DNA from: an uncultured Gammaproteobacteria bacterium
GTDB lineage: Bacteria; Patescibacteriota; Microgenomatia; Daviesbacterales; UBA10151
DNA: 64,000 nt
Direction: 5' to 3'
Assembly: GCA_964390595.1 (NCBI GenBank)
Contig: CAYMIA010000005.1
Coordinates: forward strand, 3,586-67,585
Positions 16-36,462 of the stretch are shown piece by piece; positions within the stretch are counted from its first letter, which is position 1, and every line of letters starts with the position of its first letter. Position numbers and translations under genes: made by a program. The notes below the pieces were generated by a model. It saw nothing but the letters and a program-made list of their open reading frames with translations. It was not told where the DNA came from and searched no databases.

Positions 16-1542
16 GTGGGAGAGTTTTTTAGGTGGTTACTTTATGCGCCACTCTTTGCAATCTTTTTGGCAGGGCTAGTGGCTTTTTGGGGAAATTTCC
101 AAAAGGTTAACCCAGCTGGTCCTGGTTCTAATCCAATTCCTCTCTCGGGTATTAATTATCCATGTGAGCCCAATTCTAAAACTAATGTGAATGGTTCGAG
201 TAGTTATTATCCGACTTCGATCAATATTTTAGTTGGTGGGCCTTGTCAGACTTTGGCTTTTGACAATGATCCACTGAAAAATAACAGTGTTAATATCCCT
301 GAATCATTTTTGCAATATGTGGTGGCTTTAGTGATGCTTTGGGGGGTGATTTTAGTGCCATGGATACTACTTAAAATCTTTTTGGATTATTTATATAGCT
401 TTTCTTGGGGTGATAATAGTATAGCAAAGTATCTTGTTAATTCAGCATCCCCACTTAGAAACCGCTATTTTGGGGGAAGAGAGCCAGTTCCAGGGCCGCC
501 CGTCCGCCCGGGATCTCCGGGAGTTCCACCGAGTGGGACAACTGGGCGGGCGATGGAGTTGCCTTACTTTAAAGAGAGTCCAATGCAGGTTGCAGAGAAA
601 AACGAACAGTCGGCTAATGTCTTTAATTCAGCTAATGTGGCGACCAGTGAAAGTGTCCGGGAGATGAACCGGGCCACTAATTTGGCGAATCAAACCAGTC
701 AGATCCAAAATCAAACTCAATCATCAATTTCTTCAATTGCTAATATGCCTACATTTAACAGCGCGGCAACTGATTCCCAGTCAACTAGTGAAATACTGAA
801 CTTAACTAATTTAAGTATCCCAACGATTCAAGATATTGCTAAATATGAGGCAGCAATTATTTCAACAGAAACTAACAGTCAGGTGGAGATAAACAACCAA
901 GCTCAGGTAAGTAAGATCTCTGAATCGCTAAACCGGTTGGCTGGGACAAGTCCAATTACCACTCCTTCTGAACGGGAGATTTATACCAAGGTTAGGGAGC
1001 GGATTGAAAGAGAGTCAGTTAAAGGCAATAAGATTGCATCAACTATTTTGAATGCAGCAGTGCCGCAAGCGGTTAAAGCGGCGATTCCAGACAAGAACAC
1101 CGTTCAGCAAGTTAATTTGGATGATTATGAAGAGGTTAAGCGGACTTGGTTACAAAACTACCGCAAACTAGATGCTCCGGCGGCCCCAGATGGTTCGCCA
1201 CGCAATAGAAAAGAGTGGTTGAAGCAAGAGGTGGCTCAAATTAGTCAAGTGACAAGTTTGATGGCATCAAATGAACCGGCAAAACAGGAGCAAGCTAAGG
1301 CAATGGTTTCCAAGATTTTACCATTTTTGCTTTTGGGAGGATTCTCTCAAAGCGAGATTATTGCTTACTTGAAAGCCAAGCAAGAAGCTGCTAAGACTGT
1401 TCTGGCAGATATGCCAGCAGACGGTGAGTCAGAAGAAGATTTGGTTTCGATCGAAAAGAAAAAACAAGAGGCTCCTAAAACTATGACCACAGAAGCAGAA
1501 ATACCTGAGGATAAAAAACCAGAACCTTTGAAAAACAGTTAA
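16..1542 (+). CDS. hypothetical membrane protein with N-terminal TM helices, a Pro-rich patch, a Q/N/S/T-rich low-complexity middle and a Lys/Glu-rich C-terminus; 5' end may extend beyond the window (GTG start, frame open to nt 1)
   Basis: long ORF; hydrophobic segments WLLYAPLFAIFLAGLVAFWG and VVALVMLWGVILVPWILLKIFL; no catalytic motif recognised. Confidence 0.45.
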   Translation: MGEFFRWLLYAPLFAIFLAGLVAFWGNFQKVNPAGPGSNPIPLSGINYPCEPNSKTNVNGSSSYYPTSINILVGGPCQTLAFDNDPLKNNSVNIPESFLQYVVALVMLWGVILVPWILLKIFLDYLYSFSWGDNSIAKYLVNSASPLRNRYFGGREPVPGPPVRPGSPGVPPSGTTGRAMELPYFKESPMQVAEKNEQSANVFNSANVATSESVREMNRATNLANQTSQIQNQTQSSISSIANMPTFNSAATDSQSTSEILNLTNLSIPTIQDIAKYEAAIISTETNSQVEINNQAQVSKISESLNRLAGTSPITTPSEREIYTKVRERIERESVKGNKIASTILNAAVPQAVKAAIPDKNTVQQVNLDDYEEVKRTWLQNYRKLDAPAAPDGSPRNRKEWLKQEVAQISQVTSLMASNEPAKQEQAKAMVSKILPFLLLGGFSQSEIIAYLKAKQEAAKTVLADMPADGESEEDLVSIEKKKQEAPKTMTTEAEIPEDKKPEPLKNS

Positions 1543-2920: not shown

Positions 2921-3862
2921 TTAGGCGCCTAAGTAATAAATGATTCCAATGACTACAACCAACCAGAGCATGACGGTGATGAGGAGGGGTTGGTCGGTGA
3001 GTAGAACTCGCTCTGGAGATTCGCCTTCCTTTTTTTCATAGATAATGTAGAGGTAGCGCATGACTCCATATATGACAATGGGGATGGTGATCATTAGAAA
3101 TTTTGAATAGTTGGTGAAAGGTAAATTAAAGTTATCTAAGAAGCTGACTAGCCGGTGTCTGGCAACTATTGGAGGTTGCAAAAAAGTGAATAGGGCAAAA
3201 GCTAGCCAAGTTGAATTAGCGAACATAGCGGTTAAAATATCCAATAAATTTTCAGGGTAGTGAAGCAAAGTTTCCCGGTGTTTGCTGGCCGCAGTGGCAT
3301 TGTGGAGCAAGGTTAGTTCGGAGCGGCGCTTACCTATTGCTAAGAAAAGAGCAAAAGAGATAACTGTCAGTAGAAACCAAATATTTAAATGGGCATCAAT
3401 TGCCCAAACTCCAGCATAAACCCGTAGCACAAACCCAGCAGCAATCGCCATCACATCAAGTAAAATGACTGATTTAAGATAGGAAGAATAAAGTAGTTGG
3501 AGAGCCAGGTAACCAAAAACAGCTAGGAAAAATGAGGGCGAAATTTTAAAAGCAAAAAAGAGTGAACCAAAGATTAAAACAACTACTAAAACTAAGGCAA
3601 AAGGAATTGAGATAAGCCCAGCAGCGATAGGGCGCTTGCTTTTGAAGGGATGAAGGCGGTCTCTTTTAATATCAAAGATATCATTTAAGACATAGGTGGC
3701 AGATGAAGCAGCGCAAAAAATTAGAAAGGCAAATAGAATAGTGATTAAACTTTCGGAATTATTTAGTTTGCCAGAAAAAAGCAGCCCAGCAAAGAGGGCA
3801 AAGTTTTTTATCCATTGTCTTGGTCTGACCTCCCGAAGAAGGGCCCAAAGGAATTTAACCAT
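2921..3862 (-). CDS. UbiA-family prenyltransferase, decaprenyl-phosphate phosphoribosyltransferase-like
   Basis: RPRQWIKNFALFAGLLF N-terminal motif, YVLNDIFDIKRDRLHP (NDxxDxxxD) and KSKRPIAAG motifs, 8-9 TM helices. Confidence 0.7.
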   Translation of the reverse strand: MVKFLWALLREVRPRQWIKNFALFAGLLFSGKLNNSESLITILFAFLIFCAASSATYVLNDIFDIKRDRLHPFKSKRPIAAGLISIPFALVLVVVLIFGSLFFAFKISPSFFLAVFGYLALQLLYSSYLKSVILLDVMAIAAGFVLRVYAGVWAIDAHLNIWFLLTVISFALFLAIGKRRSELTLLHNATAASKHRETLLHYPENLLDILTAMFANSTWLAFALFTFLQPPIVARHRLVSFLDNFNLPFTNYSKFLMITIPIVIYGVMRYLYIIYEKKEGESPERVLLTDQPLLITVMLWLVVVIGIIYYLGA

Positions 3863-4920
3863 AAGATAAATCCGATAAATAATATTGAAACTCCCAAAAT
3901 TGCAAAGAACTTTGAGGTAGTATCAATAAATAACGAGACTAAGCCTAAGATAGCAGAGATAGCAATATAAAACAAGGCGATCCGCTCTTGAGACCAACCT
4001 TTACGGTCAAGTAGAAGATGATGGAGATGGCCCCGGTCGCCCCAAACTGGAGATTTGCCATGAGCGATTCTTCTCACAATAGTATAGATAAAATCGAGCG
4101 CAGGTATGGCGAGTACCAGCAACATAGTGGCAACTTTAGCACCAGATAGAATTGACAGAATTGCTAACATAAAAGCCGAGATTGTAGATCCGGAAAAACC
4201 GGGCAGAATTTTACTAGGATGCCAATTAAAAAGTAAAAAAGCCAGAGAGGTACCGGCGGTAATAAATCCTAATTTAGCAACAGTTAGTTGGTGAATGTCT
4301 CCCTGGAAAAAAAGTTTGGTAGAAAGGATGGCCATAGTTAGAGAGGCGATGAAGGTAATTCCTGGCATTTGCCCGTCAACTCCCTTGCTCCAATTGATGA
4401 CTTGGGTGAGAGCAATGATTAAAAAGAAAGCAAAAATATCAGCGATGGGAATTATTTGATGCGGGCCAAAAAATTGAAAAGGGATGGTGATTTGATCCAG
4501 TCTAATATATGAGCCAACCTGCAATGGATTAGCGATAAACGAAACGCCGATGCCTGATGCAACTGCACAACCAGCTGCTAAAAATAACAGAGAGAGTCTA
4601 ATATAAGGGTTAAAATTTCTAAATTTATCATCGAGAAGTCCAATGATTAACAGAACGGTGATTCCAAGGAGAGTCCCAATTAAATATTTCTTGATTGGTA
4701 AAAGGAGTAAGGTAGTAATGACAATTCCTAGGTAAATAGCAAGTCCACCCGCGCGGGGGATAACTCTTTGTTGAATATGGGCGGGGTGGGGTCTCTTTTT
4801 TGGGTCATCAACAAGAGAATATTTTTTGGCAATTTTAATGGTAATGGGAATGGCAGCACAGGTAACTAAAAAAGCGATTAGAAATGGAAAGACGTCGATC
4901 ATTTTAAATGAATATTCCAA
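3808..4920 (-). CDS. glycosyltransferase family 4 polyprenyl-phosphate sugar-1-phosphate transferase (MraY/WecA family)
   Basis: IIGLLDDKF motif, polytopic membrane protein, HHLLL... C-terminal region typical of MraY/WecA; the 3' end overlaps the UbiA-family ORF by ~55 nt. Confidence 0.65.
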   Translation of the reverse strand: MEYSFKMIDVFPFLIAFLVTCAAIPITIKIAKKYSLVDDPKKRPHPAHIQQRVIPRAGGLAIYLGIVITTLLLLPIKKYLIGTLLGITVLLIIGLLDDKFRNFNPYIRLSLLFLAAGCAVASGIGVSFIANPLQVGSYIRLDQITIPFQFFGPHQIIPIADIFAFFLIIALTQVINWSKGVDGQMPGITFIASLTMAILSTKLFFQGDIHQLTVAKLGFITAGTSLAFLLFNWHPSKILPGFSGSTISAFMLAILSILSGAKVATMLLVLAIPALDFIYTIVRRIAHGKSPVWGDRGHLHHLLLDRKGWSQERIALFYIAISAILGLVSLFIDTTSKFFAILGVSILFIGFILWLNSFGPFFGRSDQDNG

Positions 4921-12769: not shown

Positions 12770-13154
12770 TTTTGACCTTTCTGAATTCGCCGCTTCGACG
12801 GTTAGGCATAAGTTTATTGATTTGGCGTTTGATTGTCAAACCACGGTTGGGGAGAAAGCGGTAGAGTAGGATGGTTAAGATGACTACAAAAAAGATGGTT
12901 ACAATATTTAATTTGTCTAAAGACTGAAGAGTGGTGATGAACATCAGCCCTAGTCCAAAGGCGAAACTTCTCATGATATGGTTCAGGAGTAGGTTAATAA
13001 TGCCTGTGAAAAGTAAAAGTAAAGGGATAAAGAGGCTGAGGATTTGAGTTATAGAAGCGGTTTCCCAAGTTTTGGGTGGGGGAGTGAAAAAAATAATGCA
13101 GCTTAAAATTCCAGCAAATAGAACGACAAAAAGCAGTCTGGTTAGAAATGACAT
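12762..13154 (-). CDS. membrane protein, hypothetical
   Basis: 4 hydrophobic helices; start overlaps metG. Confidence 0.4.
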   Translation of the reverse strand: MSFLTRLLFVVLFAGILSCIIFFTPPPKTWETASITQILSLFIPLLLLFTGIINLLLNHIMRSFAFGLGLMFITTLQSLDKLNIVTIFFVVILTILLYRFLPNRGLTIKRQINKLMPNRRSGEFRKVKNV

Positions 13155-23993: not shown

Positions 23994-26021
23994 TTAAAAG
24001 TTGAGCCAGTCGTCTTCGTCGACTTGGCTGACGTCGTCACTGAAGGTGGGTTTGTCTTCGAGACGGTCAGAGTATTTACTATTTGAATCTAGCAGATTTT
24101 CGGGTATCGATGCAATAAAGCGGGAGACTAAATTATTAGAGCGGGTGCCGAAATAAAGCCGGGAGCGGGTGTAGGTTAAGTAGAGGCGGTCTTTAGCCCT
24201 GGTGATGCCGACATAAGCGAGGCGGCGTTCTTCTTCCATCTCATTTGGGTTTAGCATTGATCTTGAATGGGGGAAGAGCCCTTCTTCCATTCCAACTAAA
24301 AAGACCACTGGAAACTCCAGGCCTTTGGAGGCATGGATAGTCATTAGGGTGACAGCTTCTTGTGACTGTTCGGATTTGCCATCTGGCATGTTGTCGCCTT
24401 GGACCAAAGAGACATTTTCTAAAAATGAAACTAAATCAGGAAACTCTTCAGCAACTGAGCGGAGCTCTTTAACGTTTTCAACGCGGTTTTTACCGGCATC
24501 GGTACCATCATCTAAATAAGCGAGGTAACCGGTTTTGATCAAGACGTTGTCTAATAGTTCTAGGGTAGTATAATCACTGGTTTTGCCACTGACCTCCCCA
24601 ATGTATTCAAAAAATTTTTGGGCTCTCCCCTTGCCGATTTTTTCAACTCTTTTTTTGGCGATTGAATCGCTGGGATTTTGGAGCAATTTTAAATAAGAGA
24701 GGACGTCTTTGATCTCTTTTCGGGCATAAAATTGAACGCCACCAAAAAGTTTGTATGGCACTCCAGATTTGAGGAAAGCTTCCTCGAGACTTCTGGATTG
24801 AGCATTGGTTCGGTAGAGGATAGCAAAGTCTGAAAGGGTAAGTTTGGTAGACTCGGGGGTCCTGTCGGCTAACAGCCCCATCCGACCTCCTCGTTCCGTT
24901 AGCACTCCACTGCGGGGGCTCGATGGGGCGCCCCGTTTGCCGTCACCCTCCTCGCCTAACCTAAGTTTTTCTGCGTCACCCAAAATTGAACCACTTGAGG
25001 CCATTCTCAATATTTGATCGATTAGGAAAAGAGCTTCTTCGACCTCATTTCGGGCTTGGAAGATGGTGATTTTGGGGCCCTCTTTTTTATCGGTCCAGAG
25101 TTTTAAAATTGGATGGCTAGTATTTTCGGAGATAACAGCTTGGGCGGCATCAAGGATAACTTGAGTTGAACGGTAGTTTTGTTCCAAATTAAAAACTTTA
25201 GTTTCTGGGTAGTCTTTTTCAAAGTTGACGATGTTCCGGAAGTCGGCGCCACGGAAGCCATAGATGGCCTGGGAGGCGTCTCCAACCACGCAGATGTTCC
25301 GGTAGCGTTTAGCTAGGAGTTTAATGAGTTGATATTGGGCAGCGTTAGTATCTTGATACTCATCAACTAAAATATATTTAAATTGTTGTTGGTAGCGGGA
25401 GAGCACTGGAGGTTGTGATTGAAAGAGACGGATTGTTTCCATAAGCAAGTCATCGAAGTCGAGCGCCCAGTTTTGGCGCAGAATTTTTTGATATTCAATA
25501 TAAACTTTGGCGACAGTTTCTTGAAAATAACCTCTCGCGTACTGCGGATATTCCATTTCAGAGATGACCTCATTTTTGGCTCCAGAGATAGTATTTCGAA
25601 CGGCATTGGGATTAATTTTTTGAGTAGCTAAATTTAATTTAGCCATGGCCTGCTTGATAGCATCGAGAGCATCGCTTTCGTCATAAATTGAAAAGCCGGG
25701 GTTGAGGCCAGCGTTGTGGGCTTCTTTGCGTAGGATTTTAGCGCAGATGGAGTGAAAGGTGCCCATTAGGGGTTGGTTCGAGCTTTTACCTAGGAGTTGT
25801 AAAATCCGCTCGCGCATCTCCCCTGCCGCTTTGTTGGTAAAAGTAACAACTAAAATATTATCTGGGGAGATTTGATGCTGGGAAATTAAATAGGCGACCC
25901 GGTAAGTTAAAACTCTAGTTTTGCCAGAGCCAGCACCAGCTAAAACTAAAACTGGACCTTCAGTGGCTTTAGCAGCTTCTTGTTGAATGGGGTTTAAATC
26001 CTCTAAATTAACACTGGGCAT
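23994..26021 (-). CDS. pcrA: ATP-dependent DNA helicase UvrD/PcrA, carrying a 41-codon GC-rich in-frame insertion
   Basis: motif I LAGAGSGKTRVLTYRVAYL, motif II VDEYQDTN, motif IV YRTNAQSR, C-terminal LAYVGITRAKDRLYLT; insertion RLGEEGDGKRGAPSSPRSGVLTERGGRMGLLADRTPEST precedes motif IV. Confidence 0.85.
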   Translation of the reverse strand: MPSVNLEDLNPIQQEAAKATEGPVLVLAGAGSGKTRVLTYRVAYLISQHQISPDNILVVTFTNKAAGEMRERILQLLGKSSNQPLMGTFHSICAKILRKEAHNAGLNPGFSIYDESDALDAIKQAMAKLNLATQKINPNAVRNTISGAKNEVISEMEYPQYARGYFQETVAKVYIEYQKILRQNWALDFDDLLMETIRLFQSQPPVLSRYQQQFKYILVDEYQDTNAAQYQLIKLLAKRYRNICVVGDASQAIYGFRGADFRNIVNFEKDYPETKVFNLEQNYRSTQVILDAAQAVISENTSHPILKLWTDKKEGPKITIFQARNEVEEALFLIDQILRMASSGSILGDAEKLRLGEEGDGKRGAPSSPRSGVLTERGGRMGLLADRTPESTKLTLSDFAILYRTNAQSRSLEEAFLKSGVPYKLFGGVQFYARKEIKDVLSYLKLLQNPSDSIAKKRVEKIGKGRAQKFFEYIGEVSGKTSDYTTLELLDNVLIKTGYLAYLDDGTDAGKNRVENVKELRSVAEEFPDLVSFLENVSLVQGDNMPDGKSEQSQEAVTLMTIHASKGLEFPVVFLVGMEEGLFPHSRSMLNPNEMEEERRLAYVGITRAKDRLYLTYTRSRLYFGTRSNNLVSRFIASIPENLLDSNSKYSDRLEDKPTFSDDVSQVDEDDWLNF
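24846..24961 (-). mobile_element. GC-rich hairpin-rich insertion element copy B1 inside pcrA/uvrD, flanked by 7-bp direct repeats TAAGTTT (24839-24845 and 24962-24968)
   Basis: 116 nt of ~70% GC in a ~38% GC gene; direct repeats 123 nt (41 codons) apart; removing it restores collinearity with PcrA; related to intergenic copy 35357-35452. Confidence 0.5.
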
Positions 26022-34308: not shown

Positions 34309-34947
34309 ATGCTCATAAAACTGGCCTCACTGCTATTTCTAGGTCTGGGAGTTTTTATTTTGGTCCAAGTGGCGACTCCTTTTTTGGCGTTCAAAGTTTG
34401 GGAGGTAACTGCTTATAGTCAGGACTCTTTGCTGGTTGATCCGGTGTCCACAAAACCGGTGGATGGAGTTTTTGTTCAAGATTTGGGCAACTTTCCAGCG
34501 ATAGTTTCTGCTAATAACCGGGATGGGGGAACCCCCTATCATGAATTTGAATTGACTATTCCGACAATTAAATTGCAAGATATAAAGGTGGTAGTTGATA
34601 GCAATGATTTTGAACATAATTTAGCGCATTTGCCTGGATCAGCGTTGCCAGGTGAAAAAGGGAATGTGTTTGTAACTGGGCATTCTTCCTTAGCCCAGTT
34701 TTTTAAACCAGATAACTTTAAAGCGATTTTTGCCAATTTACCCAATATTAAAAAAGGAGATGAGATATTTGTTACTGCGGGAGGGCAATCTTTTGTATAT
34801 GTGGTTGAGGGGATGAGAATTGTTGATCCAAAAGAGATTAGTGTAGTAAATCCACCTAATTCAACAGGGAGGTATTTAAGTTTGATGACTTGTGTCCCAC
34901 CTGGATTTAATACCAAGCGTTTGGTAGTATTAGCTAGATTAAAATAG
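34309..34947 (+). CDS. sortase-family transpeptidase
   Basis: N-terminal TM, LPGEKGNVFVTGHS (catalytic His) and YLSLMTCVPPG (TLxTC catalytic Cys) motifs. Confidence 0.65.
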   Translation: MLIKLASLLFLGLGVFILVQVATPFLAFKVWEVTAYSQDSLLVDPVSTKPVDGVFVQDLGNFPAIVSANNRDGGTPYHEFELTIPTIKLQDIKVVVDSNDFEHNLAHLPGSALPGEKGNVFVTGHSSLAQFFKPDNFKAIFANLPNIKKGDEIFVTAGGQSFVYVVEGMRIVDPKEISVVNPPNSTGRYLSLMTCVPPGFNTKRLVVLARLK

Positions 34948-35339
34948 TGAAATATTTAGGCATAGATTATGGGCGTAGAAAAATTGGTCTGTCAATTTCT
35001 GAAGGCCAGTTGGCTTCCGTTTTTAAAGTTTTAACAGTTGGTGGGGTGGCTGATGCTGTTTCTAAAATTATTCAAGTGATTCACAAGGAAGATATTAACC
35101 GGGTGATTGTGGGCGTTCCTGAAGGGGGAACTGGAAAGATGGTCAAGTCTTTTGTTGAGAATCTGAAAAATGAATTATCCGAGACTGATGTGGTAGTTTT
35201 AGAAGCTGATGAGACGCTTTCTTCAAAAAAGGCCTTGGATTTGATGATTCAAGTTGGGGCTTCTAAAAAAGACCGGAAAAAAGAAGACGCCTTTTCAGCA
35301 GCGATTATTTTACAAAACTTTTTAGATTCTTTAGAATAG
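34947..35339 (+). CDS. ruvX: Holliday-junction resolvase-like RuvX/YqgF
   Basis: MKYLGIDYGRRKIGLSIS start, RNase H-like; conserved ruvX-mltG adjacency. Confidence 0.7.
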   Translation: MKYLGIDYGRRKIGLSISEGQLASVFKVLTVGGVADAVSKIIQVIHKEDINRVIVGVPEGGTGKMVKSFVENLKNELSETDVVVLEADETLSSKKALDLMIQVGASKKDRKKEDAFSAAIILQNFLDSLE

Positions 35340-35356
35340 TATAGGTAGTTTACTTA

Positions 35357-35452
35357 GGGTCCTGCCAGCTTGGTTTCCCGTCGGATGTCCTCACTATGCT
35401 ATCGCTCCGTTGCGGGCATGCGCCGGGAGCCCTCCTCGCTGTCACCCTGCGT
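35357..35452 (+). repeat. GC-rich hairpin-rich element copy B2 (intergenic, between ruvX and mltG), homologous to the insertion inside pcrA
   Basis: ~96 nt of ~65% GC; shares GGGTCCTG(C/T)C(A/G)GCT..., ...CTCCGTT(A/G)..., CCCTCCTCGC...GTCACCCT blocks with 24852-24957. Confidence 0.5.
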
Positions 35453-35475
35453 AAACTTTTATTTAGACATAGAAA

Positions 35476-36462
35476 ATGAAAAAAAACTTTATTAGAAATT
35501 GGTTGATATTAATTGGAGTGGTGGTGGTGGTGGGAGTGGGGGTGAAAGTTTATTGGGGATATTTAAATTCAGCGGTTAATTCGAGTGAACCTTCAACTAA
35601 AGCGTTTGTGATTCAAAAAGGGGAGTCAGTAACGAGTATTGCTGAACACTTAAAACAAGAAGGGTTGATCCGTTCGCCGCTGGCTTTTAAAGTGGCTTTA
35701 AAATTATCGGGAGTGGGGGTGAAAATTGAGGCAGGAGATTTTAAGTTATCGCCAAGTATGTCAATTAAAGATTTGATGAGTGCATTGCAAAATGGAGCAA
35801 CAGATAAATGGGTGACGCTGCTTGAGGGATGGAGGCTGGAGCAAGTAGCTGATGAGTTAAATAGACAATTGACAATTGACAAGGGACAATTTCTGAAGGT
35901 GGCCCGTGAGGGGTATATGTTTCCTGACACTTATCTTTTTAATAAAGAAGCTAGCGCAGAGACAATCGCCTCAACTTTAGAAAATACTTTTGACCAAAGG
36001 TATGATGAGGAGTTAAAAGCTAAGGTACGCGCAAGAGGTCTGACTGAGCAACAAGGGGTGATATTAGCGTCAATTGTGGAGAGAGAAGCGAGGTCTGATG
36101 AGGTTAGGACTAAAGTAGCAAGTATTTTGTTAAAGAGGTTTAAAATTGGGATGGCTTTAAATGCTGATGCGACTGTTCAATATGCTAAAGATTCGCAAGC
36201 TTTAAAAATGGGAAACTTGGCAAAATTTTGGCAGCCGGTTACAACTGATGATTATAAAGAGATTGTTTCCCCCTACAATACTTATTTAAATGCGGGGCTA
36301 CCACCTACTCCAATTTGTAACCCAGGTTTGTCATCAATAAAGGCGGTTGCGAGTGCCGATCCATCAACACCCTATCTATTTTATTATCATGATAGCCAAG
36401 GAAACTCATATTATGCTAAGACTTTGGAAGAGCATAATCAAAATGTCAGGAGTCATCCGTGA
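35476..36462 (+). CDS. mltG: endolytic murein transglycosylase MltG (YceG-like)
   Basis: N-terminal TM, YceG-like domain (ASIVEREA, catalytic E context), C-terminal GLPPTPICNPG. Confidence 0.7.
   Translation: MKKNFIRNWLILIGVVVVVGVGVKVYWGYLNSAVNSSEPSTKAFVIQKGESVTSIAEHLKQEGLIRSPLAFKVALKLSGVGVKIEAGDFKLSPSMSIKDLMSALQNGATDKWVTLLEGWRLEQVADELNRQLTIDKGQFLKVAREGYMFPDTYLFNKEASAETIASTLENTFDQRYDEELKAKVRARGLTEQQGVILASIVEREARSDEVRTKVASILLKRFKIGMALNADATVQYAKDSQALKMGNLAKFWQPVTTDDYKEIVSPYNTYLNAGLPPTPICNPGLSSIKAVASADPSTPYLFYYHDSQGNSYYAKTLEEHNQNVRSHP

Follow-up and report, generated by a model that had tools for sequence, protein, structure and literature searches.

Several systems of small, folding, dispersed DNA elements offer themselves for comparison with the repeat described here. 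Rickettsia palindromic elements (RPEs) are palindromic repeats of about 100-150 nt in the small, AT-rich genome of a host-dependent bacterium. Ogata et al. are said to have found in 2000 that about half of the RPE copies lie in frame in unrelated housekeeping genes, each adding a peptide and leaving the gene intact; to our knowledge no cognate transposase is known, and how RPEs spread has never been worked out. The mobile GC clusters of yeast mitochondria are GC-rich palindromes in an AT-rich genome, with in-frame copies in VAR1. Integron attC sites have paired ends with extrahelical bases around a variable hairpin of 60-140 nt, are recognized as folded single strands and show a replication-related orientation. 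IS200/IS605 elements and their derivatives, among them palindrome-associated transposable elements (PATEs) and the repetitive extragenic palindromes (REPs) and REPINs that go with RAYT, carry two subterminal hairpins or consist of REPs of 20-40 nt; the target is not duplicated, and REPs occur outside genes. Rickettsia genes harbour in-frame RPE insertions (PMC10969869), enterobacterial small mobile sequences of the RU/ERIC type have occasional in-frame intragenic copies (PMC2759123, PMC3184786), and IS200/IS605-type elements show an orientation bias relative to replication (PMC5027513, PMC3116915). Here we analyse a 64,000-nt stretch of contig CAYMIA010000005.1 (the window) that contains two copies of a palindromic repeat, copy A in the spacer between ruvX and mltG and copy B inside the helicase gene pcrA. 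We read this repeat, with a probability of about 0.72, as a non-autonomous, hairpin-forming mobile palindromic element of the RPE or MITE type (MITE, miniature inverted-repeat transposable element) that has spread through Patescibacteria genomes.

Like RPEs, the element is palindromic and dispersed, occurs in frame in housekeeping genes (35 of 84 copies) and has no known cognate transposase. It differs from them in its Patescibacteria host, in being shorter (73-116 nt), in having one base module common to several candidate phyla, and in lying in genes in both orientations, tied to GC skew. We regard it as an analogue of the RPEs and not a member: its host is a daviesbacterium, and the two are likened by description; no kinship in sequence with RPE-1 to RPE-10 would be expected. 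The conserved cores of the two window copies are as follows.

24857-24948, plus strand: copy B, GGGTCCTGTCGGCT ... GCCGTCACCC; same chromosomal orientation as copy A, antisense to pcrA.
35357-35447, plus strand: copy A, GGGTCCTGCCAGCT ... GCTGTCACCC; the C-rich 'sense' strand is the window plus strand.

Copy A (35357-35452) aligns with the pcrA insert (24855-24965) on the same strand, collinearly and nearly without gaps, with 63% identity over 93 nt. The local alignments reach z = 6.7 and 5.4 and the global alignment z = 4.0, with none of 1000 dinucleotide shuffles attaining the score, whereas the reverse-complement alignment is at chance (z about 0.2); blastn within the window gives E = 1e-4 for A against B. 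These results bear out the central claim of a first-pass annotation made from the sequence alone, which had noted a GC-rich island in the ruvX-mltG spacer, likened it to the pcrA insertion in the same orientation and proposed alignment on both strands against shuffled controls. The island is real, since 35350-35449 has 62% GC against 40.7% for the window and about 35-45% around it. The ordered blocks that the annotation saw shared between the copies hold as overall collinearity, except that CCCTCCTCGC is not collinear: in copy A it lies inside the element, before GTCACCC, and CCTCCTCGC in copy B lies in the flank, after GTCACCC. A further block, described as inverted between the copies (GTCGGATG vs CATCCGAC), shows no inversion; it aligns collinearly as TCGGAT/TCCGAC, and the difference comes from base pairs of a covarying stem that have flipped from C-G to G-C.

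Under a stringent scoring scheme (+2/-3) only identical blocks of 8-10 nt are left, 150 of 2000 shuffles do as well and significance is lost. Because only short blocks survive such harsh scoring, we consider the homology of the two copies to be old. The same loss of significance would be expected if two GC-rich, C-rich stretches merely resembled each other by chance, an explanation to which we give next to no weight, given the permissive local and global alignments, the failure of a third GC island of the window (463-571) to align with the copies (z < 0), and the fact that a pattern drawn from the two copies fetched about 90 more of the same architecture. No third copy was found in the window either by nhmmer or by a covariance model with filters off.

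That pattern was built from the ends shared by A and B and run on a species-representative genome collection, and a refined pattern was run on metagenome contigs. The first version demanded a trailing T that is absent in most members, so the family was under-sampled in the genome collection: most of its 60 matches are unrelated (Sorangium, Streptomyces and others), and the members among them come from three metagenome-assembled genomes (MAGs), namely JACOXD01 of Daviesbacteria (on three contigs), one of Saccharibacteria and an unclassified one of Patescibacteria. The refined pattern returned 89 stretches of metagenome contigs, nearly all with the same architecture. In total we recovered about 90 copies (Daviesbacteria, Saccharibacteria, another Patescibacteria MAG and metagenome contigs), so that the named taxonomic range consists of three Patescibacteria MAGs and the remainder of metagenome contigs. 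A covariance model built from 47 copies, a search that the annotation had suggested, finds 93 matches in the 708 kb of retrieved loci, including further divergent copies on L090 and L128; it matches copy A with 92.9 bits (35351-35453, minus strand) and copy B with 76.7 bits (24851-24954, minus strand).

Members of the family share two near-invariant ends, GGGTCCTGCC(A/G)GCT and (A/G)GC(C/T)GTCACCC, with a variable hairpin between them. They measure 73-100 nt between the conserved ends and, at copy B, 116 nt between direct repeats, and their host contigs mostly have 35-46% GC, a few reaching 54-74%. Several copies may occur per genome or contig (counts refer to retrieved contigs and not to whole-genome scans): two in the window, two each on L077, L090 and L155, and three in JACOXD01, where they lie in tsaD, in topA and in the recG-rpmF spacer and are mutually far more alike than are copies across genomes. 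The expectation of the annotation that a spacer copy and an in-frame gene copy would belong to a dispersed palindromic element is thus borne out by these relatives. A member reduced to its two conserved ends, joined as GGGTTCTGCCAGCTCGCTGTCACCC, was met on L064 (minus strand, about 13010-13037; model match at L064 1940-1976, plus strand).

The family apparently is widespread in Patescibacteria and undescribed. Full-text literature searches returned no description of such an element in Patescibacteria. Rfam 15 gave no match at gathering score in the window and, at E <= 10, only chance matches of 9-10 bits to small nucleolar RNAs around A and B. The 41-residue PcrA insert peptide has no match among 1.84 billion representatives, and a search with concatenated consensus peptides gave only 4 weak matches; because peptide searches returned next to nothing, the family can be traced only at the DNA level. 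A phage origin was rejected, with one match among 2.9 million viral contigs. The 3' end AGCUGGCAGGACCC had been likened by eye to the terminus of E. coli 4.5S RNA, an idea dropped because the domain IV motifs are absent and the Rfam signal recognition particle models have no match.

All copies fold into one long irregular hairpin. In a model-based alignment of 78 distinct copies, 94.1% of the pair cells are standard pairs against 75.6% after shuffling, and both sides have changed, in a compensatory way, in 17 of 23 pairs. For covariation the score is 0.481, a height reached in 0 of 500 shuffles; shuffled alignments give 0.156, and partners slid by 1-3 columns at most 0.09. The segments GGGT...ACCC and C(A/G)GC...GC(C/T)G pair in all 78 distinct copies; the ends are imperfect, with CCTGCC opposite GAC. 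Read on the G-rich strand, this base module is 5'-GGGU-GA-C(G/A)GC ... GC(C/U)G-GCA-GG-ACCC-3', in which an asymmetric internal loop separates two short helices; tandem G.A mismatches (CGAG/CGAG) often bracket the module. The common flanks GCTCG and CTCGC are also paired to one another and seem to belong to the element. To the eye, the sequence of the base loop loosely resembles a kink-turn (K-turn), with G and not A at position 2b.

The two strands of the element do not fold equally well. The G-rich strand (5'-GGGUGAC...GGCAGGACCC-3') is the more stable one in 65 of 75 copies with RNA parameters (p = 3.6e-11) and in 73 of 75 with DNA parameters. G.U pairs number 73 and A.C pairs 32 in that strand, a count that we treat as supporting only, the alignment having been fitted to the G-rich strand.

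Insertion can be followed most closely at copy B, whose features are these.

23994-26021, minus strand: pcrA/uvrD-type helicase gene, host of copy B (Pfam UvrD-helicase 1.3e-95, UvrD_C 8.7e-63).
24839-24845, plus strand: TAAGTTT, left copy of a 7-bp direct repeat, putative target-site duplication; AAACTTA on the gene strand, encoding K-L.
24840-24962, minus strand: 41 extra PcrA codons, RLGEEGDGKRGAPSSPRSGVLTERGGRMGLLADRTPESTKL, from orthologue alignment and codon mapping.
24846-24961, no strand assigned: full inserted element, 116 nt between the direct repeats, from PcrA orthologue alignment and codon mapping.
24962-24968, plus strand: TAAGTTT again, the right-hand member of the repeat pair.

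The PcrA insert comprises exactly 41 codons and is bounded by the TAAGTTT repeats, in agreement with the AAACTTA duplication that had been noted earlier, and Lys-Leu is duplicated on both sides of it: uninserted orthologues read ..KKLTLNSFA.., and the PcrA of the window reads ..EKL[insert]..KLTLSDFA... Orthologues of 613-634 residues have no insert at the site, and the segment is absent from P0122, P0124, P0127 and P0132; other orthologues have family members there, and one (P0179) keeps only both element ends (RGD-SRQDP), which we attribute to internal deletion of the element. Together with the L064 mini copy, P0179 suggests recurrent deletion of the apical hairpin. In L155, a further copy stands in pcrA (P0129), about 350 nt downstream of the first; the two are 89% identical and have in common private variants of the otherwise invariant ends, GGGTGGCGAC ... 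GTCGACAGGACCC, and we therefore consider that copying took place within that genome. In an AlphaFold model of PcrA, which is weak overall, the insert (residues 343-391) is without secondary structure and of low confidence, with a predicted local distance difference test (pLDDT) score of 25-31.

A second insertion hot spot was seen in Daviesbacteria PcrA, at alignment columns ~520-590 (window residue ~475), after KGRAQKFFEY. P0129 has a further family copy there, and in several orthologues the place is taken by different peptides that recur, ..PSRAAGRMI..ENDKAEHEG.. as well as ..GAKQ.QKNEIATS..SPRNDG.., and that resemble further families of in-frame repeats.

Copy A lies in a different setting, with the following features.

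34947-35339, plus strand: ruvX, upstream neighbour (Pfam RuvX 7.6e-22).
35330-35339, plus strand: TTTAGAATAG, 3' end of ruvX with the stop codon; left-hand member of a 10/11 direct repeat, possibly a target duplication, uncertain.
35347-35457, no strand assigned: extended hairpin of copy A with its 7-bp flanking inverted repeat, from sequence, fold and a flank-pairing table.
35456-35466, plus strand: T-rich tract CTTTTATTTAG directly 3' of the hairpin, terminator-like on the ruvX/mltG strand.
35462-35472, plus strand: TTTAGACATAG, right copy of the 10/11 direct repeat, 3 nt before the mltG ATG.
35476-36462, plus strand: mltG (YceG family), downstream neighbour (Pfam YceG 1.9e-78).

The nearest MltG and PcrA homologues belong to Candidatus Daviesbacteria (Patescibacteria, candidate phyla radiation (CPR)), with only ~65-71% amino-acid identity. 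The ruvX-mltG spacer of the window is 136 nt long and contains the GC island that is copy A. In the Daviesbacteria relatives L151 and L152/153 the two genes overlap, and in L150 they are separated by an 89-nt spacer without the motif. Excision of the segment between the 10/11 repeats would leave the ruvX stop codon 3 nt from the mltG ATG, as compactly as in the relatives, and we take the repeat as no more than suggestive; the longest direct repeat in the flanks of copy A is TTTAGA. The flanks of A and B, which the first-pass annotation had thought comparable, turn out to be of different kinds, a 7-bp inverted repeat at A (AGTTTAC, 35347-35353, and GTAAACT, 35451-35457), which lengthens the hairpin, and a 7-bp direct repeat at B. 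The absence of the element from the ruvX-mltG junction of relatives and from several PcrA orthologues shows, as far as sequence comparison goes, that copies A and B are insertions. We infer mobility from this pattern of presence and absence, from the target-site-like duplication at B, and from paired copies of one genome that share private variants.

The plus strand of copy A folds with -41.9 kcal/mol (z = -3.45), and the hairpin is followed by CTTTTATTT at 35456-35464. A simple consensus terminator scan made no call here because the stem is too long for its rules. The G-rich, better-folding strand of copy A is the minus strand of the window.

Copies were classed as in frame when the reading frame is open for at least 120 nt on both sides. 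By this definition the 35 copies named above, of 84 non-redundant ones, lie inside long open reading frames (ORFs) and the remainder are intergenic. Within genes the element lies antisense 22 times and sense 13 times, and it is read preferentially in certain frames (antisense frame 1, 19 copies; sense frame 1, 11; antisense frame 2, 3). The host genes encode PolA, SecA, DnaX, Der/EngA, a ClpB-type ATPase, RadA, TopA, TsaD, ribosomal protein L10 and PcrA. Nearly all copies, intergenic ones included, are free of stop codons in four of the six frames, and the frames used give hydrophilic peptides rich in Gly/Pro/Ser or in Asp/Glu/Arg, a composition that fits selection for harmless, flexible loops. 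The only reading frames of the element are those of the host gene, and it has no transposase ORF. Among the 47 intergenic copies, a run of at least four T follows 3' in the 'sense' orientation in 18, copy A among them, and in the other orientation in 6.

Since coding copies can have peptides in common, such as RGDGEEGSRR...EPAGP and RGPAGS...SPSP, one may ask whether the likeness is one of proteins, i.e. a linker peptide or low-complexity coding sequence of which the spacer copy would be a decayed fragment. We hold this to be very improbable, and the first-pass annotation had also set protein low complexity aside. Unrelated peptides result from the same DNA according to which of the two orientations and several frames is used; conservation resides in nucleotides that pair and that change in a compensatory way; intergenic copies make up more than half of the family; and the PcrA insert is without a match among the protein representatives searched.

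Some host sites recur in orthologous genes of different organisms. Family members occupy the same position in two PolA genes, at the linker between the 5'-3' exonuclease and polymerase domains (L088 ~2949-3045 and L119 ~3884-3965), and the same position in a large protein with an N-terminal MerR/excisionase-like helix-turn-helix (HTH), after the HTH (L077, L079, L081, L084, L086, L101, L112, L116, L134 and L147). The copies at these shared sites are sometimes of different subfamilies. Such sites are either very old insertions or the repeated use of a few permissive sites.

We observed that the orientation of the element follows the local base composition of the host strands. The C-rich element strand lies on the locally G-rich host strand in 47 of 58 copies, or in 45 of 56 (p = 5e-6) when near-duplicate loci are left out, and the rule extends to intergenic copies (27 for, 7 against) and to copies antisense (10 and 4) or sense (8 and 0) to the host gene. 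Orientation relative to the local coding strand is divided only 34 to 25, and where skew and coding strand disagree the skew wins at 16 of 18 loci. Both window copies obey the skew rule, A in the spacer of plus-strand genes and B in a minus-strand gene. Replication direction was read from GC skew, with no origin mapped; by the usual convention, the weaker-folding strand would lie on the lagging-strand template and the stronger hairpin would lie on the leading-strand template.

These orientation data bear directly on the suggestion, raised as an alternative in the earlier annotation, that copy A is a discrete structured small RNA gene from which the coding copies derive. The GC-rich island in an AT-rich spacer, its stable fold (z = -3.45) and the covariation across the family are what one would expect of such a gene, and a sigma-70-like pair of hexamers, TTTACA-17-TAGAAT (35309-35337, plus strand, 10/12, a consensus match only), stands just upstream, in the 3' end of ruvX. 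Set against this are the absence of any Rfam family even at E <= 10, a locus that is not conserved (relatives have no spacer there), the members inside ORFs in either orientation, an orientation that tracks GC skew and not transcription, and a better-folding strand that is antisense to the ruvX/mltG transcription unit. We consequently think the small RNA quite unlikely, and the coding copies are not well explained as its offspring. ARAGORN found no tRNA or tmRNA.

Conservation of the element exceeds that of the genes around it. Over 99 nt, copy B has 86% identity to the copy that L155 carries at this pcrA site. For the surrounding gene, identity between the window and L155 is 75% in protein and only 47% at third codon positions. 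Similarity follows subfamily and not locus: the intergenic copy A is 85% identical to the L157 copy at the pcrA site. Either active copies overwrite or re-seed older ones (replacement, conversion), or there is selection on the element. The second of these options, which we judge unlikely, would make the element more than selfish DNA.

Selection by the host could take the form of a cis-acting hairpin kept for a role in RNA or DNA, as an intrinsic terminator, an mRNA 3'-end stabiliser or a protein site at the asymmetric loop with G.A pairs (K-turn-like), mobility being only its means of spread. This would account for ends that are invariant from Daviesbacteria to Saccharibacteria, for stems upheld by compensatory change, for the 86% identity at one pcrA site against 47% at synonymous sites, for the T-run after copy A and other intergenic copies in the 'sense' orientation, and for the tandem G.A motifs and G.U pairs that favour one strand. 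We nevertheless consider it improbable. The element lies in genes in both orientations, independently of transcription, and in intergenic copies such as A the better-folding strand is usually not co-transcribed with the neighbours; close relatives manage without the element at the same loci; a strong hairpin and U-run between the formerly coupled ruvX and mltG looks harmful rather than useful; and the K-turn likeness is by eye only, with G instead of A at position 2b.

A related proposal, which we put forward tentatively and would back somewhat more readily, is that the element is a structured single-stranded nucleic-acid site under purifying selection throughout Patescibacteria, bound through its invariant base module by a putative enzyme or protein associated with the replication fork, whose recognition re-copies or maintains the element even in essential genes. 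Its partner could be a new single-strand recombinase, an HUH-like mobiliser or a host factor that uses the sites as strand-oriented chromosomal landmarks.

Returning to the mobile palindromic repeat that we prefer, we propose that the element would be mobilised in trans by some enzyme, that mobilisation would at least sometimes duplicate a short AT-rich target (7 bp in the case of B), and that copies would persist only where harmless, in spacers (many before a T-run, terminator-like) and in permissive surface loops of proteins. At the ruvX-mltG junction, insertion of copy A would have turned an abutting or overlapping gene pair into one that is 136 nt apart and would have put a hairpin of -42 kcal/mol followed by UUUUAUUU on the transcribed strand between the genes. 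The strand-asymmetric fold and the skew-linked orientation together indicate that a single-stranded DNA step at the replication fork may be involved. This step might be a strand-specific insertion, as for IS200/IS605 elements (PMC5027513), or it might be a preferential loss of copies that have the more stable hairpin on the lagging-strand template.

Several observations weigh against this reading. No full-length element with the same ends was found in the 708 kb of loci, where unpaired ends occur only in the mini copy; clustering of 1380 ORFs from the loci gave only housekeeping genes and orthologous hosts, with no recurrent gene beside the copies; and no mobilising enzyme was found at the loci examined. 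No filled/empty polymorphism within a population was observed. Target duplications are weak across the family, with symmetric direct repeats of at least 6 nt at 8 copies against 4.6 expected (p about 0.08) and only an imperfect 10/11 repeat at copy A. The duplication at B misfits single-strand transposition of the IS200/IS605 type, and the two hints, that duplication and the strand bias, name no one known enzyme class. GC skew is a proxy for replication direction, translation of the inserts is read from intact frames only, and conservation far above synonymous sites, with ends invariant across phyla, calls for an explanation of its own.

Comparison with the mobile elements introduced above, and with MITEs, points to likenesses and differences in each case. 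The element is MITE-like in being small and without a transposase ORF, in its inverted-repeat ends, in its multiple dispersed copies and in the short direct repeat at B. Unlike a MITE, it is a single hairpin throughout and not a pair of terminal inverted repeats around unrelated DNA; its two ends differ, CCTGCC facing GAC in an asymmetric way, the loci yielded no parent insertion sequence, and target duplications are not demonstrable family-wide. With the IS200/IS605 group it shares strand-specific folded DNA, non-canonical pairs and, judged from GC skew, an orientation bias relative to replication, and a Y1 gene is present on a related Daviesbacteria contig. It differs in its single hairpin and in the 7-bp duplication at B, where elements of that group insert 3' of a fixed tetra- or pentanucleotide and leave the target unduplicated. 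It also runs opposite to the rule for IS608, since its better-folding strand is found on the C-rich strand of the host, presumably the template of the leading strand. From REPs and REPINs it differs in length, in its many intragenic copies and in lacking a GTAG head.

The Y1 gene just mentioned lies upstream of pcrA on L156 (contig CAZFVS010000052, 691-1125, minus strand) and encodes a 144-residue Y1_Tnp protein (PF01797, IS200-like). It is bounded by hairpins of its own, CCGCGGACTAAAGTCCGCGG and CCCCGCCCTAAAAGAGGGCGGGG, which are unrelated to the element, and the element does not flank it; we rejected it as the mobiliser.

Like attC sites, the element has conserved paired ends with unpaired bases, a variable terminal hairpin and presumably a relation between orientation and replication. 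It has no RYYYAAC/GTTRRRY core sites (its ends being GGGTCCTGCC and GTCACCC) and no cassette array or integrase context, and its copies lie in housekeeping genes and ordinary spacers. The GC clusters of yeast mitochondria are alike in being GC-rich palindromes scattered in an AT-rich genome with in-frame copies, and unlike in being organellar, much shorter and of unrelated sequence families.

The family would represent a second case, besides RPEs, of palindromic repeats in frame in genes, independent and much more widely distributed. In the ultra-small, host-dependent Patescibacteria, copies can be compared by the hundred across many subfamilies and genomes, and the invariant base module, the strand-asymmetric fold, the replication-strand orientation and the conservation far above synonymous sites provide handles on mechanism. 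We stress that the inserts add 25-40 residues to core proteins (PolA, SecA, TopA, PcrA, L10 and others), with consequences in CPR genomes for gene calls and orthology, for phylogenies based on alignments and for predicted structures, and that the GC-rich islands formed by the element could be wrongly taken for RNA genes.

Three further observations concern palindromes and repeats met along the way. The L063 copy (1867-1939) lies at the exact centre of a 15-bp perfect AT-rich inverted repeat, GAACAATAAAAAATA / TATTTTTTATTGTTC, which is absent around the L105 copy of the same subfamily; a terminator-like palindrome may have been there first and have received the element at its apex. In Sorangium spp. 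(L001-L055, e.g. L001 4702-4796) a sequence of 95-96 nt, GGGTCCTGAC(A/T)GCTCACCCTACCGGCTTGAACACGG...GTCACCCT, occurs in at least five near-identical places per genome in several genomes; its fold is weak (-19 kcal/mol), it has no relation to the family of Patescibacteria, and it may be either a dispersed repeat of its own or a piece of some multicopy gene. Finally, the window has a second GC-rich island, with up to 77% GC, at 455-575 (plus strand), inside the ORF at 16-1542. It is unrelated to A and B, and the part at 463-571 was dropped as a candidate third family copy because it has no similarity to them. On the plus strand it folds into a branched hairpin (-50.5 kcal/mol, z = -2.0), and a hypothetical membrane protein contains it in frame as ..GGREPVPGPPVRPGSPGVPPSGTTGRAME..; it probably represents a different family of in-frame palindromic insert.

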